From the NCBI RefSeq assembly GCF_058153355.1, contig NZ_CM177019.1: a stretch of DNA of 64,000 nucleotides, one strand, 5' to 3'. The notes beneath the pieces were generated by a model, which was not told the origin of the DNA, did no database searches, and worked only from the letters and a program-made list of their open reading frames with translations. The translations under genes were made by a program, and so were the position numbers. Below, in pieces: positions 33,371 to 43,939 of this stretch; the first letter of the stretch is position 1, and every line of letters begins with the position of its first letter.

Positions 33371-34810
33371 TACACAATGAACTTCAAGACACTTGCTTCG
33401 GTATCTGGAAATTATCATTAATTCTGGATGAGACCAGCCTTGCTATATCTGGCAACGTTTCTTCAAAAACGTCGATATTGTATCCCTGAAATCTCACGCA
33501 CTGCTGAACCGGCATGTTCATTCATTATTTATCCAGGCCATTTGCAATCAGTACCATCACTATTATATGCCTCAATATTTTCTTCAAACTCAGTTATTTT
33601 TCCACTTTTCGATTTATAGTAAGATCTATTAAATATTGCACCCTGCGTAGCAACAACATACAATCCGTTGACTTTACACCCTATAACCTCACTCCATGTA
33701 TAAGTAAACTCTGAAGGTCTATCATCGAAAGTCATTTCCAATATTTCGTAAATGCAGGAGGTATGAATTTTGAGGACATTCCATAAACCACATAACCTAA
33801 AACAACATCACCAGAAGATACTTCAACAAATTTTAAATTTATCTTCCCCAAAATAAAACAGCCAACCGTAGTTTGTTATTTAGCAAGTAAGAAAAAGGGC
33901 ATCAAACAAAACATTAAAACAAATAATTTAACTTTCATATCATTTACACCAATTCAGTTATTCGCCTCTGTACAAAAGCACACACAGATTTTGAATTAAT
34001 GGCGTCCAAAAACATAATCGGATAAAAATACCACACCGGAATATTACTGATATAGCGGGATCTTACTCATTCGCTAAACTGAAAATGCAATTGAACAGAA
34101 ATTTCTTACTAGTGTTTAGATACTCGAAAAGGAAATCAACTCACTGGCAAGTATCATAAGCTCAAATTGGCATATTGTATATTCCCATAAATAATTTTAT
34201 TTTTTTGATTAACATACTCAATACTACACATCACTAATTGAGAGAAGATTAACTTCATCATCTTTGATTAGGTACGTTTTTTAATTTTCAATGACGCATC
34301 ATAAAAAAGGGCTTCCCAAGTTTAACACTAATAACAGGATATAAAGAAAATATATTGCTATATGAATCCTTTGGCGATGTTTTGGTTATCGTAATCTTTC
34401 CTTCTTTCAAGTGCTCTGCTATTATATGAAATTGAATCGGTCTTGTTGCATCACTTACCCGCAATGGATTGCCAGCGTAAGCTTCATACCCTCCACCATT
34501 ATTCATATGTAAAATAGTGTATTCGTCATTTAAAAATGGCTGCTTACTATCGTAGACTTGGTAGTATATATTACTTATATCAAGATAAATTACTATAGAG
34601 ATATACTTAATTTTTCATTTAGCATTAACGATGTATCCATGGAATCTATACATCTTTCAATATCAGTTATTTTTTCTTCTATATACGTAGCATAACTTTG
34701 TGGCACTGGCGTGTTTAGCCCTCATATACCCTCTTTAACTAAGACACCATTTTGCTTGCTTTTTACATTGTAATAAAGACAATCAATATTGGATTTATTA
34801 TTTTTATATT

Positions 34811-35272
34811 TCAGTGTTGTATATACAGTAAAATCATGCAGCGAACGCCCATCTGAAACAATTGCGGGCGTGTCAGAAAAAAGTCAAATGAATAAGATGG
34901 ATTATTTTCATAATCAGTCATAAATTTCATCTTTCTTATTTCATGATCAACGATCGCATAGATCTCATGATTAGATTCATCATATCCATAAATGATTTCA
35001 CCACCAGTACTGGCAGTAGCAGTAGCAGTAGCAGTAGCAGTAGCAGTAGCAGTAGCAGTAGCAGTAGCAGTAGCAGTAGCAGTAGCAGTAGCAGTAGCAG
35101 TAGCAGTAGCAGTAGCAGTAGCAGTAGCAGTAGCAGTAGCAGTAGCAGTAGCAGTAGCAGTAGCAGTAGCACTACTACAAATCAACATAATTACAAGTAC
35201 ATATCTAGTCAAGTTGAAAACCCTTAGGGGCGGATGATGTTTTTTCCAAGATGGATTGAAATTTTTCAACAT
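34811..35272 (-). CDS. Hypothetical protein with N-terminal hydrophobic segment and (Ala-Thr)n linker
   Basis: 153-aa ORF: hydrophobic N-terminus (YVLVIMLICSSA), ~26 x AT dipeptide, then ~70-aa C-terminal region; AT-rich context. Confidence 0.4.
   Translation of the reverse strand: MLKNFNPSWKKHHPPLRVFNLTRYVLVIMLICSSATATATATATATATATATATATATATATATATATATATATATATATATATATASTGGEIIYGYDESNHEIYAIVDHEIRKMKFMTDYENNPSYSFDFFLTRPQLFQMGVRCMILLYIQH
35013..35168. repeat. Perfect hexanucleotide microsatellite (GCAGTA)n, ~26 copies
   Basis: Uninterrupted gcagta tandem array read directly from the sequence (~156 bp). Confidence 0.95.
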
Positions 35273-35582
35273 AAGAATCCATTAATTGCTTCTGATATTT
35301 TTCATTAATTATTTTTCGCGTATTATCATATTAAATTTTATCACTATTAATATATTTGGGGATTTTTACTCGTAAAAATCCCCGCCTCCATTCCCCAAAT
35401 CATAATTGATACAGGACACAACTCTAGCAATGGTATCGTGAATAGTTTTCTTTAATAAGGCACGTCTCAATTCTTGAACATAAATTCGAATTATTTAGTA
35501 AAAAAACATCATCCCTGGTAGTATTACCTATTTTTGCATAATGCTATATTTATAGTAAACAATTCACAAGAAAATATTATTA

Positions 35583-36554
35583 CTAATATTTATATTCCTC
35601 CCACTGAGCACCATATCGATGCTTTAACAGTTCAACTTTAATTTCATCATATGTTTTAACTTTACTACCATCAATCTTAAGACGAATTTTATTCGAGGTG
35701 ATATCAACATAATTTCTATTTTCCCCACCCGCGGGGAAAAAATCAAACATAAAATTAGACATGTTTTGTTCTTTTTTCATGAGAGCTCCATATTCACACA
35801 TGTCATTTATATTTTGTATGTATGGAGCGCCCCCCTGACATGATGGATAATGAAAATCAATTATAATAAAAAGCGATTTATTGATACTCCTCTGAAAGAA
35901 CCACTTATTATTTACAATACGATAGGTTAAAGATTTAAATGTATACCAGTGACTTCCTGGAAGAAAAGAGTAAGCTTCATTAAGATTGACAGTAAATACC
36001 TTAGTTTCTCCAGAGGAAAGCTTTACCCATTCTGATTTTATATCACAATTATCGCCCATGCCAAAATAAAGCTCATCATTGGCATCATCCTCAAAAAAAT
36101 CACATATATTGGTTGCGGAAGGACGGAATTTCAGATAGAAACCACTTGTGGATATTAAAAAAGAATCCTCACATAAAGGAGAAAAAAAATAAGGCTCCGA
36201 TGTGTGTGAGGAGATAGGTAATAATCGTCTATGAATGAAATTTTCGCTCCCCCCCAAATTTGTAAAACTTATTTTTGCTAACACACGAGAGTCAATTTGC
36301 TTAACGGTTAATCTAACATCAACATCAAACATGTTACGATTTAGCAATTTTTCCTCGACTCCGTCAGTGTAATGTGATGACTCAAGTATATTGTCCTCAA
36401 GAGTCATCGAATTTAATTTTTGTTCAGAAACATATTGTGTAATAACCTCATCATTGCAGTATCCATGAAATGAAATAAACATTAGCACTGCAATCTTAAC
36501 TAATCTCAAAATACTTTTCAATATTGTATGCATTATTAAAAACCAGCGGGTCAT
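35583..36554 (-). CDS. Signal-peptide protein, paralogue of ORF 38219..39040 (candidate immunity protein 2)
   Basis: 323-aa ORF with N-terminal hydrophobic leader; shares motifs with 38219..39040 (ISFTN/ITFTN; AYxFxPG; Yx[19 protein letters not shown] near C-terminus). Confidence 0.5.
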   Translation of the reverse strand: MTRWFLIMHTILKSILRLVKIAVLMFISFHGYCNDEVITQYVSEQKLNSMTLEDNILESSHYTDGVEEKLLNRNMFDVDVRLTVKQIDSRVLAKISFTNLGGSENFIHRRLLPISSHTSEPYFFSPLCEDSFLISTSGFYLKFRPSATNICDFFEDDANDELYFGMGDNCDIKSEWVKLSSGETKVFTVNLNEAYSFLPGSHWYTFKSLTYRIVNNKWFFQRSINKSLFIIIDFHYPSCQGGAPYIQNINDMCEYGALMKKEQNMSNFMFDFFPAGGENRNYVDITSNKIRLKIDGSKVKTYDEIKVELLKHRYGAQWEEYKY

Positions 36555-36809
36555 GTTTTGATTTTAATTCTTTTGCATTGGCAATTTCTCTTTTTTTCCC
36601 AAATCGTTACTGCTTAATCCACCATAATACTGTTCTCCATCCCAGATAATAAAAAGGTGAGATAACTCATGGCATAATGTGGAGACTCGAGAGTTTTCTC
36701 CCGTTGGATTTTTACATGTGAAATTTTGTAAGATATCTATAGATATTCTGTCTCGATACTCTAACTTTAAAAGTTCAGCCTTCGACTTATTTTTATACTC
36801 ACTACTTTG

Positions 36810-37295
36810 TTATTGGGGCCGATTTAGATCTATATGAGTCGTCTGAGCAGCCGGTATACGGGCTGAGCCATTGACTAAATTGGTATAATTTTTAAAATTG
36901 CCATATATTAGTTGTACATTATCTTGCGTTCGAGTTTCAATGATCAAGCTATCACAAATCATGATCATTCTGTAAACCCCCTCTTTTATAAAACTATGTG
37001 CGTCAATATTCTTGGTTTGTGGAGTGAAGTTCCCATTATTATCTGACTTTTGACAAGGAGCATAGTGTTCCATTGTTATAATAGCATCACCTGGTAATCC
37101 AAATATATCTTCAAAATTTGTCTGATCTGCTGGTGTCCATGCTTCCAGATTTTTCGCTCTGATATTCAATACTCGCTTTGTTTCTTTCAAAGCAGGGGTT
37201 ATCATGTTGTAAAATTGATCAGTAACCTTTGCTTCTTTTTTACACACATTGCCTTTTTGAGTTACTCCTTGTGAACTTCCTTTGTTATTATTCAT
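36810..37295 (-). CDS. Truncated paralogue of the HEXXH protein (lacks HEXXH region)
   Basis: ORF 36810..37310; N-terminal ~110 aa align with 39064..39855 (QFYNMI/HFKIMI; IFGxxG; GVxRLMII/GVYRMIMI) but the ORF ends before any HEXXH motif. Confidence 0.45.
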   Translation of the reverse strand: MNNNKGSSQGVTQKGNVCKKEAKVTDQFYNMITPALKETKRVLNIRAKNLEAWTPADQTNFEDIFGLPGDAIITMEHYAPCQKSDNNGNFTPQTKNIDAHSFIKEGVYRMIMICDSLIIETRTQDNVQLIYGNFKNYTNLVNGSARIPAAQTTHIDLNRPQ

Positions 37296-43065: not shown

Positions 43066-43115
43066 TATATTACCTTAATTTATTTCACATCAGCATCCCC
43101 CCTTGCAAACCACAA

Positions 43116-43472
43116 CTAAACTATTCCCATAAAATACAACGAGATAATTTTACTGTTAAACGTACATTCACAAAACTCAGGGGAAGAAAAATGACCATCA
43201 GTCAAAAATAAAGATAGTTTGCTTAGTGCGTAATCAATTGAATCAAGCGACAAGTATAATTTTATTACTAGTGAGTCCTGTATCAGGACATCATCTTCAT
43301 TGGGGGATTGTAAAAGTAATAAATTTTTATACGCTACAGGTGATCTGTTTTCCAGTCTAATAGGTTTGCTTGCTTCCGTCTCCAATAAACTATAAAGAGC
43401 ACAAACCATCTCATGAGCATCATCTTTATCAAAATATAAATGAAAACCGCCCAGAGATTTGTTAGCAATCAT
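43116..43472 (-). CDS. Hypothetical protein
   Basis: 118-aa ORF in AT-rich island; no recognisable motif. Confidence 0.3.
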   Translation of the reverse strand: MIANKSLGGFHLYFDKDDAHEMVCALYSLLETEASKPIRLENRSPVAYKNLLLLQSPNEDDVLIQDSLVIKLYLSLDSIDYALSKLSLFLTDGHFSSPEFCECTFNSKIISLYFMGIV

Positions 43473-43568
43473 AATACGTTTCTAAAGTTGATTTAAAATT
43501 TTGCATTTCATGCCCATCAAAAAATAAATATTTTTTAACTACAAAGCAAACCTCACAGCGCATAGCGG

Positions 43569-43784
43569 TTAATATTCTACCTTAACGACTTTCATTCCTC
43601 TTTCAATCATACCATTAATTAATTGATAATACTCTTTATCCCCTATATCTACTATTAGAACATGGCCCGTAAGTTCATTGATGAATAAATACTCAGGTTC
43701 CTCATCTGTACCAGCATTTGAAATAACCCAACCAGGATCAGTACCGTCTATAAAAAACTCCCACTCTTTAAAATTAACACTCAT
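43569..43784 (-). CDS. Hypothetical small acidic protein
   Basis: 71-aa ORF in AT-rich island; no recognisable motif. Confidence 0.3.
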   Translation of the reverse strand: MSVNFKEWEFFIDGTDPGWVISNAGTDEEPEYLFINELTGHVLIVDIGDKEYYQLINGMIERGMKVVKVEY

Positions 43785-43939
43785 TTAATCCTCCTTTTTA
43801 TACTCGCAAGAAAAGGAGAGTATCGTTTCTAACTCCGAAATAAAAGTATGATAAAAGACAGGACCTGACCTCATTTAATGTTATTTATCAATTCTTGATA
43901 GTTTTTGCAGATGCAGCGTAAACGCCTTATCTGGCCTAC

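Follow-up and report, generated by a model that had tools for sequence, protein, structure and literature searches.

A probable type VI secretion vgrG island, with remnants of a displaced second unit, at the chromosomal position of Escherichia coli K-12 rhsD

We identified, in a 64,000-nucleotide stretch of DNA (contig NZ_CM177019.1 of RefSeq assembly GCF_058153355.1; hereafter 'the window'), an island of variable DNA between the convergent genes mnmH and ybbP, where Escherichia coli K-12 carries the Rhs element rhsD. We consider it highly probable that this interval is an auxiliary effector module of a type VI secretion system (T6SS), a so-called 'vgrG island', housed in an mnmH/ybbP hotspot. 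The island contains a vgrG gene followed by genes for a predicted M35-like peptidase (here M35a) and a putative immunity protein (immA), then a deleted copy of the insertion sequence (IS) ISEc1, and then what is left of a second, paralogous unit (vgrG'-M35b-immB).

The gene order in the window is allS-mnmH-[variable DNA of ~13.4 kb]-ybbP, and the order in K-12 MG1655 is ybbP-rhsD-ybbC-ylbH-ybbD-ylbI-ylbG-selU(mnmH)-allS. BLAST alignment with K-12 extends at 97.6% identity up to position 32926, 8 bp past the mnmH stop codon, and picks up again at 46373-46376, at the ybbP stop codon, with 96% identity; between these points (32927-46375) there is no nucleotide match to the K-12 stretch. The variable interval is therefore 32927-46375 when measured against K-12, and it is 32921-43907 when measured against strains with an empty site; the island itself spans approximately 32927-43907. 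All of its genes lie on the minus strand, which is the direction of rhsD in K-12. In tblastn searches, neither K-12 RhsD nor YbbC matched the island (best E 2.1), and no part of the window reached E<0.01. No open reading frame (ORF) for a YD-repeat Rhs core was found, the long ORF encoding VgrG and not a YD-repeat protein. An original prediction for this DNA had placed the island at the rhsD position and described its contents as vgrG modules, H-repeat remnants and small AT-rich ORFs without an Rhs core; the alignment confirms the syntenic mnmH and ybbP flanks, and the profile and tblastn searches agree with the inventory. The same prediction called the island AT-rich, which holds for the cassette genes (guanine-plus-cytosine (GC) content 28-34%, against 51-53% in the flanks) and fails for the vgrG core, which at 61% GC keeps the island from being AT-rich throughout. 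Rhs elements are known for this combination of a GC-rich core and AT-rich tips.

The vgrG (tssI) gene at 39845-42250 encodes 801 amino acids, comprising a spike core, a linker rich in glycine, aspartate and glutamate, and a C-terminal domain of ~60 amino acids. Judged by its protein families, the product is unambiguously the T6SS spike protein VgrG/TssI: it matches TIGR03361 at 588.9 bits (cutoff 186, E 8e-177) and TIGR01646 at 428.7 bits (cutoff 122), contains the Pfam domains Phage_GPD (E 5e-75), Phage_base_V and Gp5_trimer_C, and has Pseudomonas aeruginosa VgrG1 (4MTK, E 1e-92) as its nearest solved relative. An AlphaFold model of the C-terminal 161 amino acids, built from a four-sequence alignment, was unusable (predicted local distance difference test (pLDDT) 39), and a transthyretin-like fold for the C-terminal domain is a guess on our part.

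The start of M35a (39064-39855; 263 amino acids, with the motif HEMSH) overlaps the stop codon of vgrG by 11 nt. We predict that its product is an aspzincin/M35-like zinc metallopeptidase that serves as the cargo effector. The AlphaFold2 model of M35a (pLDDT 81.8, predicted template modelling score 0.82) had a single meaningful set of matches in the PDB, the Grifola frondosa peptidyl-Lys metalloendopeptidase (GfMEP) structures 1GE6/1G12; this enzyme is the archetypal M35 aspzincin. The fold match to 1GE6 has a probability of 1.00, an E value of 1.4e-3 and template modelling scores of 0.41 (query) and 0.66 (target). Residues H173, E174, H177 and D194 are invariant in the family alignment, and the sources label the M35a cluster 'peptidase M35'; NCBIfam gave no match. 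The family to which M35a and M35b belong is small and found only in Enterobacterales (E. coli, Salmonella, Buttiauxella, Phytobacter, Enterobacter and Citrobacter).

The third gene, immA (38219-39040), starts 23 nt downstream of M35a, has a GC content of ~28% and encodes 273 amino acids with an N-terminal signal-like segment, suggesting a periplasmic immunity protein. We detected immA alone, without M35a or the VgrG C-terminal domain, in several strains (for example Nissle 1917, O6:K2:H1), which match 42% of the cassette query at 98.5% identity. Such an occurrence, in well-known commensal and probiotic backgrounds, is what would be expected of an orphan immunity gene against M35a. Searches of Pfam, NCBIfam and PADLOC assigned no family to immA, to immB or to the small ORFs of the island, and a promoter and terminator scan was uninformative in this AT-rich DNA.

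Related modules have been described. In E. coli BCE049, an M35 peptidase whose gene follows an orphan vgrG shows toxicity only if directed to the periplasm (PMC7904677), and the M35 protein of E. coli PAR is toxic, is neutralised by the downstream gene and is loaded on VgrG via a DUF2345 adaptor (PMC10673891). In P. aeruginosa, VgrG2b has a fused M35 domain, with PA0261 as its immunity protein (PMC10673891). Vgr islands with 'VT' effector modules are also known, as are orphan immunity genes kept after effector replacement (PMC6730261). From these families we infer that VgrG would form the spike and that the short domain at its C-terminus, tethered by a flexible acidic linker, would dock the translationally coupled M35a. 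The peptidase would then be fired into the periplasm of neighbouring cells, and the immA product, with its signal-like N-terminus, would shield the producer and its kin in that compartment.

To classify the occupants of the locus, junction-spanning queries were run against 5,426 complete E. coli genomes, of which ~680 (about 12%) are unclassified. The K-12 ybbP-rhsD junction is the most frequent (2,854 genomes, 52.6%). A near-empty site of ~0.6 kb, with a dinQ-like gene and a bacterial interspersed mosaic element (BIME), occurs in at least 1,312 genomes (24%), and an Hcp-toxin fusion (tssD, 667 amino acids, Tle1-type Hcp-ET) with three DUF2931 genes occurs in 574 (10.6%). The ybbP-side junction of the window was found in four genomes; three of them (N96, MFDS1022581 and MFDS1019527) contain the whole island at ~98% identity, and the fourth has the ybbP-proximal arm alone. 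The gene in the 'empty' mnmH-ybbP gap is annotated as a dinQ-like type I toxin and is accompanied there by the BIME (13512-14115 in comparison locus L005 and 14333-15044 in L007). K-12 RhsD begins with MSGKPAARQGD, a PAAR-like N-terminus, and all three kinds of occupant are therefore toxins linked to T6SS projectiles.

The cassette formed by the vgrG C-terminal domain, M35a and immA is far more widespread than the island: at least 80% of 38200-40209 is present at 98-99% identity in 508 genomes, including 042 and UTI89. In both genomes inspected (C4 and MS20657) the cassette lies between yncG and yddH, with a PAAR gene before it; in K-12 this interval holds rhsE-ydcD-yncI-ydcC(H-repeat). The exchange of Rhs and VgrG cassettes at one locus, as originally predicted, is thus well supported by the genome counts, in which the two alternate together with the Hcp fusion, and it extends to the rhsE locus. 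The shared recombination machinery proposed alongside it found no support, as the rhsD element and the island share no sequence, K-12 rhsD has no H-repeat and there is no integrase. We considered K-12 ylbG as an H-repeat fragment and ruled it out, because it is an IS481-like fragment; hence the K-12 rhsD element lacks an H-repeat.

Directly after the ISEc1 remnant of the island lies the second unit, with the same gene order as vgrG-M35a-immA. Its first member is an orphan vgrG 3' fragment (37288-37697) comprising a linker and a small C-terminal domain. The fragment starts exactly at GPKINLNGGGSPG, at the GPKINLN motif, and abuts the ISEc1 right end CCCTGG. It is 61% identical in amino acid sequence to VgrG residues 675-804 (60% to residues 697-804) and 77-87% identical in nucleotide sequence to 39939-40261. 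The second member, M35b (36496-37295), is a pseudogene of another M35-like HExxH effector, of the same family as M35a (29-34% amino acid identity). It is 99% identical to an intact gene of N96 that encodes 266 amino acids, relative to which it has a TAC>TAA change at 36810-36812 and an A8>A7 frameshift; its relatives are found in Phytobacter, Enterobacter, Salmonella and Citrobacter. The third, immB (35583-36554), is directly downstream of M35b and is an intact, orphan immunity-like gene of 323 codons whose product has a hydrophobic N-terminus. ImmB is 23% identical to ImmA over 290 amino acids (E 1e-23), and immA and immB are distant paralogues. The orphan unit (35400-37690) is confined, among the complete genomes, to the three island carriers.

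The Rhs-associated H-repeat, ISEc1, is present between the two units at 37698-38188 (minus strand) as an internally deleted copy of the element known from K-12 RhsB/RhsE. It is 98% identical to the K-12 ydcC element, and yhhI and ydcC match it at 98-99%. Both termini are kept, as a 27-bp left end and a 465-bp right part separated by a 776-bp internal deletion; their counterparts at the K-12 ydcC locus (L012) are 9698-9724 and 10501-10965, respectively. The copy matches the ISAs1 transposase profile NF033564 (E 2e-27), of which only positions 241-314 of 314 remain. A further remnant of 128 bp (42535-42662, minus strand), 250 bp upstream of vgrG, is the right end of a divergent ISAs1-family element; it is 79% identical to the right end of ISEc1 and 81.5% identical to 37698-37816. 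The junction of immA with ISEc1 is identical at the rhsD and rhsE loci. Because immA, the ISEc1 left end and the ISEc1 right part are joined in the same way at both, the deleted H-repeat must have travelled with the cassette. An association of vgr with RhsE/RhsG and the H-repeat was reportedly described in Hill's laboratory by Wang, Zhao and Hill in 1998 and is said to be the source of the name 'vgr', so that H-repeats beside vgrG are expected and not surprising. In strain C4, the PAAR-vgrG-M35-imm block of the rhsE locus lies between a 130-bp ISEc1 left end (upstream) and a deleted ISEc1 (downstream). The two pieces are in direct orientation (13996-14124 and 9001-9491 in locus L008), an arrangement suggestive of a former IS-bounded unit.

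Comparison with the rhsE locus and with the other carriers reveals where sequences were probably exchanged. Homology to the rhsE-locus version runs from the outer end of ISEc1 (37691) to a point inside vgrG (42107-42190), at 90-91% identity; the first ~60 codons of the window vgrG and the DNA upstream of them are unlike that version. Against all three other carriers, 37353-40209 has 1 difference in its 2,857 positions, and the rest of the island differs from them by 1-7%. Both edges of this invariant tract are in or beside duplicated vgrG 3' sequence, with breakpoints ~50 nt from the GPKINLN motif, at which the conserved spike gives way to the linker and the variable C-terminal adaptor domain. 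In the adjacent vgrG core (40210-40700, the beta-helix part) there are dense, strain-specific blocks of mismatches relative to the three carriers (L001, L004 and L010), suggesting gene conversion among vgrG paralogues. Taken together, the invariant tract and the mosaic blocks suggest recent exchange with breakpoints in vgrG. In addition, mnmH and ybbP diverge by ~2-6% between carriers and genes a few kb further out by less than ~1%; the higher divergence of the two flanking genes fits recombination through the flanks. Overall, the findings favour homologous recombination of the ordinary kind, acting both in the core genes on either side and in the conserved core of vgrG; ISEc1 may have provided a mobile stretch of homology.

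The anatomy of the island suggests the following history. An older unit, vgrG'-M35b-immB, would have been resident at the site. The cassette of vgrG C-terminal domain, M35a, immA and deleted ISEc1, normally found at the rhsE locus, would have recombined in and displaced it, with the upstream crossover in the conserved, GC-rich vgrG core and the downstream end formed by the ISEc1 right end, abutting the old vgrG. The leftovers would be the fragment of the old adaptor, the decayed M35b and the intact immB. Since then, the new cassette may have been exchanged between lineages via recombination in vgrG, and occupants of the whole locus (Rhs, Hcp-toxin, VgrG island or nothing) are probably swapped when horizontally acquired DNA recombines homologously through the core genes on either side. 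By analogy, then, the island is the VgrG counterpart of the 'C-terminal displacement with orphan toxin-immunity pairs' of Rhs and CdiA.

Several observations weigh against an effector module with this function and history. We found no other T6SS gene and no T6SS core cluster within the window, and no PAAR gene between the upstream ISAs1 remnant and vgrG, where the rhsE-locus copies have one. The Pfam match of M35a to Aspzincin_M35 (PF14521) is weak and partial (E 0.0049, 17.7 bits), and the aspzincin motif GTxDxxYG is not evident in the family alignment. A phmmer search of M35a against PDB sequences returned no solved relative, so that its tie to the M35 fold comes from the fold search. The adaptor role of the VgrG C-terminal domain is drawn by analogy, and the putative immunity role of immA and immB is based on their positions, hydrophobic N-termini and orphan occurrence. 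In N96 the vgrG gene is frameshifted, which shows decay of the island in one lineage at least. Finally, the near-identity of 37353-40209 could reflect a single recent origin of the island, with the flanks recombined later.

Some of these observations would suit a relic, kept only for immunity genes (immA and immB) against M35-armed neighbours, or simply neutral junk. The pseudogene state of M35b and of a gene for a 136-amino-acid protein, the frameshifted vgrG of N96, the lack of a PAAR gene upstream of vgrG and the existence of strains with immA alone are all consistent with it, and Rhs genes persist in K-12, which has no T6SS at all. However, vgrG, M35a and immA of the window are all intact, tightly coupled ORFs, and the cassette of 2.9 kb hardly varies from carrier to carrier. 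We therefore regard a relic as rather unlikely, although it is the strongest competitor of the effector module.

We are more doubtful that ISEc1 itself moved the cassette between rhsE and rhsD, either in the manner of a composite transposon or by one-ended transposition. The C4 block bracketed by directly oriented ISEc1 pieces, the joining of the window ISEc1 right end straight to the foreign vgrG' DNA and the second ISAs1-type right end upstream of vgrG are suggestive of such a movement. Yet the ISEc1 copy has lost the greater part of its transposase gene; on the upstream side, homology to the rhsE copy stops inside vgrG (42107-42190) and not at an IS end; the remnant upstream of vgrG is a right end from another element, with 79% identity; and target-site duplications were not identified. 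We give a similarly low probability to the idea that ISEc1, the long-enigmatic H-repeat, carries spike-toxin cassettes (VgrG adaptor domain, effector and immunity gene) from one classical Rhs locus to another, whether as their vehicle or as a mobile stretch of homology. If true, such shuttling would be one mechanism for the alternation of Rhs, VgrG and Hcp at rhsD and rhsE, and would account for the historical label of H-repeats as 'Rhs-associated'.

Both sides of the island are marked by repeats. Where the variable DNA borders on mnmH we identified an enlarged miniature repeat of 418 bp (32953-33370) that resembles the enterobacterial repetitive intergenic consensus (ERIC). It has 30-nt terminal inverted repeats (32953-32982 and 33341-33370) that are 93% complementary. 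Dispersed intergenic copies of ~130 bp, which match both of its ends, occur in essentially all E. coli genomes; the copy in the window contains internal extra DNA compared with the canonical imperfect palindrome of ~127 bp, and the ERIC2 primer has no match in it within 3 mismatches. In strain 2017-02-2CC (L002), which has the ybbP-proximal arm only, homology is lost at 32946, just before this element.

At the ybbP edge is a BIME, consisting of two inverted repetitive extragenic palindromic (REP) sequences with a spacer like an integration host factor (IHF) site. It is split into a half with one REP and the spacer (43908-43972, with an IHF-like WATCAANNNNTTR match) and a half with the ybbP-proximal REP (46332-46375), which is also found in empty-site strains. 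The first half is 97% identical to its counterparts in the empty-site strains L005 and L007, and because such strains have the BIME too, it belongs to the backbone.

The BIME is interrupted by a group II intron of 2,359 nt (43973-46331, minus strand) that encodes a reverse transcriptase/maturase/HNH protein (44057-45733). The intron RNA matches Rfam RF02012 (domains D1-D4, 112.5 bits) and RF00029 (D5-D6, 65.5 bits), its ORF matches TIGR04416 at 371 bits (cutoff 300, E 6e-111), and an identical protein has the domains RVT_N, RVT_1, GIIM and HNH. As the intron is absent from the three island carriers and from L002, we interpret it as a separate, later insertion unrelated to the island. It was detected in no chromosome of the 5,426 complete genomes and in two plasmids of that set, and 20 plasmids in PLSDB contain 80% or more of it; as a rule, it resides on plasmids, in or beside hok (Hok/Gef) loci. 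The 5'-exon match (Y)TACGA is provided here by the REP 3' end (..GGTCTACGA, intron, AGATCG..). On a Logan contig, the same intron (99.9% identical) has inserted independently a second time, after another REP and next to an rsmC-like gene; REP/BIME sequences may thus be ectopic targets for a hok-homing intron. The 5-nt sequence CGACA following the intron was considered as co-transferred exon sequence, a reading ruled out by the Rfam D6 boundary and the second insertion, by which the intron end lies 4 nt further on, at 43973.

The original prediction had both repeats coincide with the island boundaries; the ERIC-like element is indeed on the mnmH side, but inside the variable DNA, and the BIME with its intron has no causal part in the edge. 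The AT-rich, foreign-looking DNA and the repeats on both sides would fit an integrative mobile element, or the remnant of a prophage, with ERIC-like or BIME repeats as its target. We nevertheless find this very improbable, because the island has no integrase, tRNA or att-like or direct repeats at its ends, the BIME is present in empty sites as well, and other strains have unrelated cargo at the locus, whose breakpoints coincide with the flanking stop codons. Still further from credible is a diverged or degraded ortholog of the K-12 rhsD element, which the shared chromosomal position, the GC-rich core with AT-rich tips and the H-repeat might suggest, and which is refuted by the lack of nucleotide homology over 32927-46375, by the lack of a tblastn match to RhsD or YbbC and by a long ORF that encodes VgrG; the original prediction had named such orthology as what would overturn it, and neither search found it.

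Other genes of the island lie outside the two units. An ORF of 153 codons with a hydrophobic N-terminus (34811-35272) contains a perfect array of GCAGTA x 26.5 (35013-35171; 100% matches in Tandem Repeats Finder) that encodes (Ala-Thr)n. Alignments with the other carriers break across the array, suggesting that they differ in copy number. The 136-amino-acid protein mentioned above has a signal peptide and no family match; its gene (33529-33939) is frameshifted here, with only the C-terminal 70 codons in frame, and intact in N96 (WP_000865233). The ybbP-proximal arm encodes three small AT-rich ORFs (42757-43784; 102, 118 and 71 amino acids), also without a family match, and is common to strain 2017-02-2CC, which has no vgrG, at 95% identity. 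The 102-amino-acid ORF (42757-43065) contains two CxxC pairs, is zinc-ribbon-like and is present in that vgrG-less strain as well. The flanking genes allA (30118-30600, minus strand), allS (30829-31755, plus), mnmH (31824-32918, plus) and ybbP (46379-48793, minus) match K-12 at 96-97.6% identity.

The island is not a new kind of system, and there is precedent for all of its components and processes, namely vgrG islands, M35 cargo effectors, orphan effector-immunity units and Rhs hotspots. What is new is the placement of the cassette at the rhsD site (three of the 5,426 genomes, and the window), the good preservation of a displaced unit whose M35b-immB pair is rare, and genome counts as evidence that a single site alternates among PAAR-Rhs, Hcp-toxin, VgrG-cargo and empty states; in the literature on ybbP with T6SS or rhsD we found no paper that describes the hotspot as such. 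The rhsD site would thus be a general docking bay for T6SS ammunition, whether PAAR-Rhs, Hcp-toxin fusion or VgrG with cargo. VgrG cassettes would undergo displacement with orphans as Rhs tips do, with the breakpoint at the border between spike and adaptor. The two related adaptor/effector/immunity sets side by side would be a natural example of joint adaptor and effector swapping, well suited to specificity-swap work.

The closest known systems are the 'vgrG islands' or orphan VgrG modules of E. coli (VT; VgrG-O1/O2 with M35), in which vgrG likewise lies outside the main T6SS cluster and is followed by a predicted cargo toxin and a putative immunity gene (PMC6730261, PMC7904677, PMC10673891). 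The island studied here differs from these in its location at the rhsD rather than the rhsE locus, in the lack of PAAR and in the displaced M35b-immB pair, which is almost absent from E. coli. P. aeruginosa VgrG2b also brings an M35-type zinc metallopeptidase on a VgrG spike to the periplasm (PMC10673891), a role predicted here from sequence and fold; the peptidase is fused to VgrG there and encoded by a separate gene here. In the T6SS auxiliary clusters of Vibrio cholerae (Kirchberger 2017), as far as they are presented in PMC6730261, a new effector-immunity pair comes in and the old immunity gene is kept. These clusters, on the same account, concern another organism and other effectors, whereas a vgrG fragment, a decaying effector and an IS remnant at the junction are visible in the window. 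With the Rhs elements rhsD and rhsE the island shares the same two loci, the GC-rich core, the AT-rich variable end with its putative immunity gene, and ISEc1/H-repeat; unlike them, it has VgrG and not a YD-repeat shell as its core, and its toxin is a separate cargo protein instead of the C-terminal tip of the core. The closest parallel in process is the 'C-terminal displacement' of Rhs proteins (Jackson 2009; Poole 2011, PMC3150448), which similarly leaves a displaced, orphan toxin/immunity unit downstream, with the difference that what was displaced here, in an island with no homology to rhsD, would be both the adaptor domain of VgrG and an effector encoded by a gene of its own.

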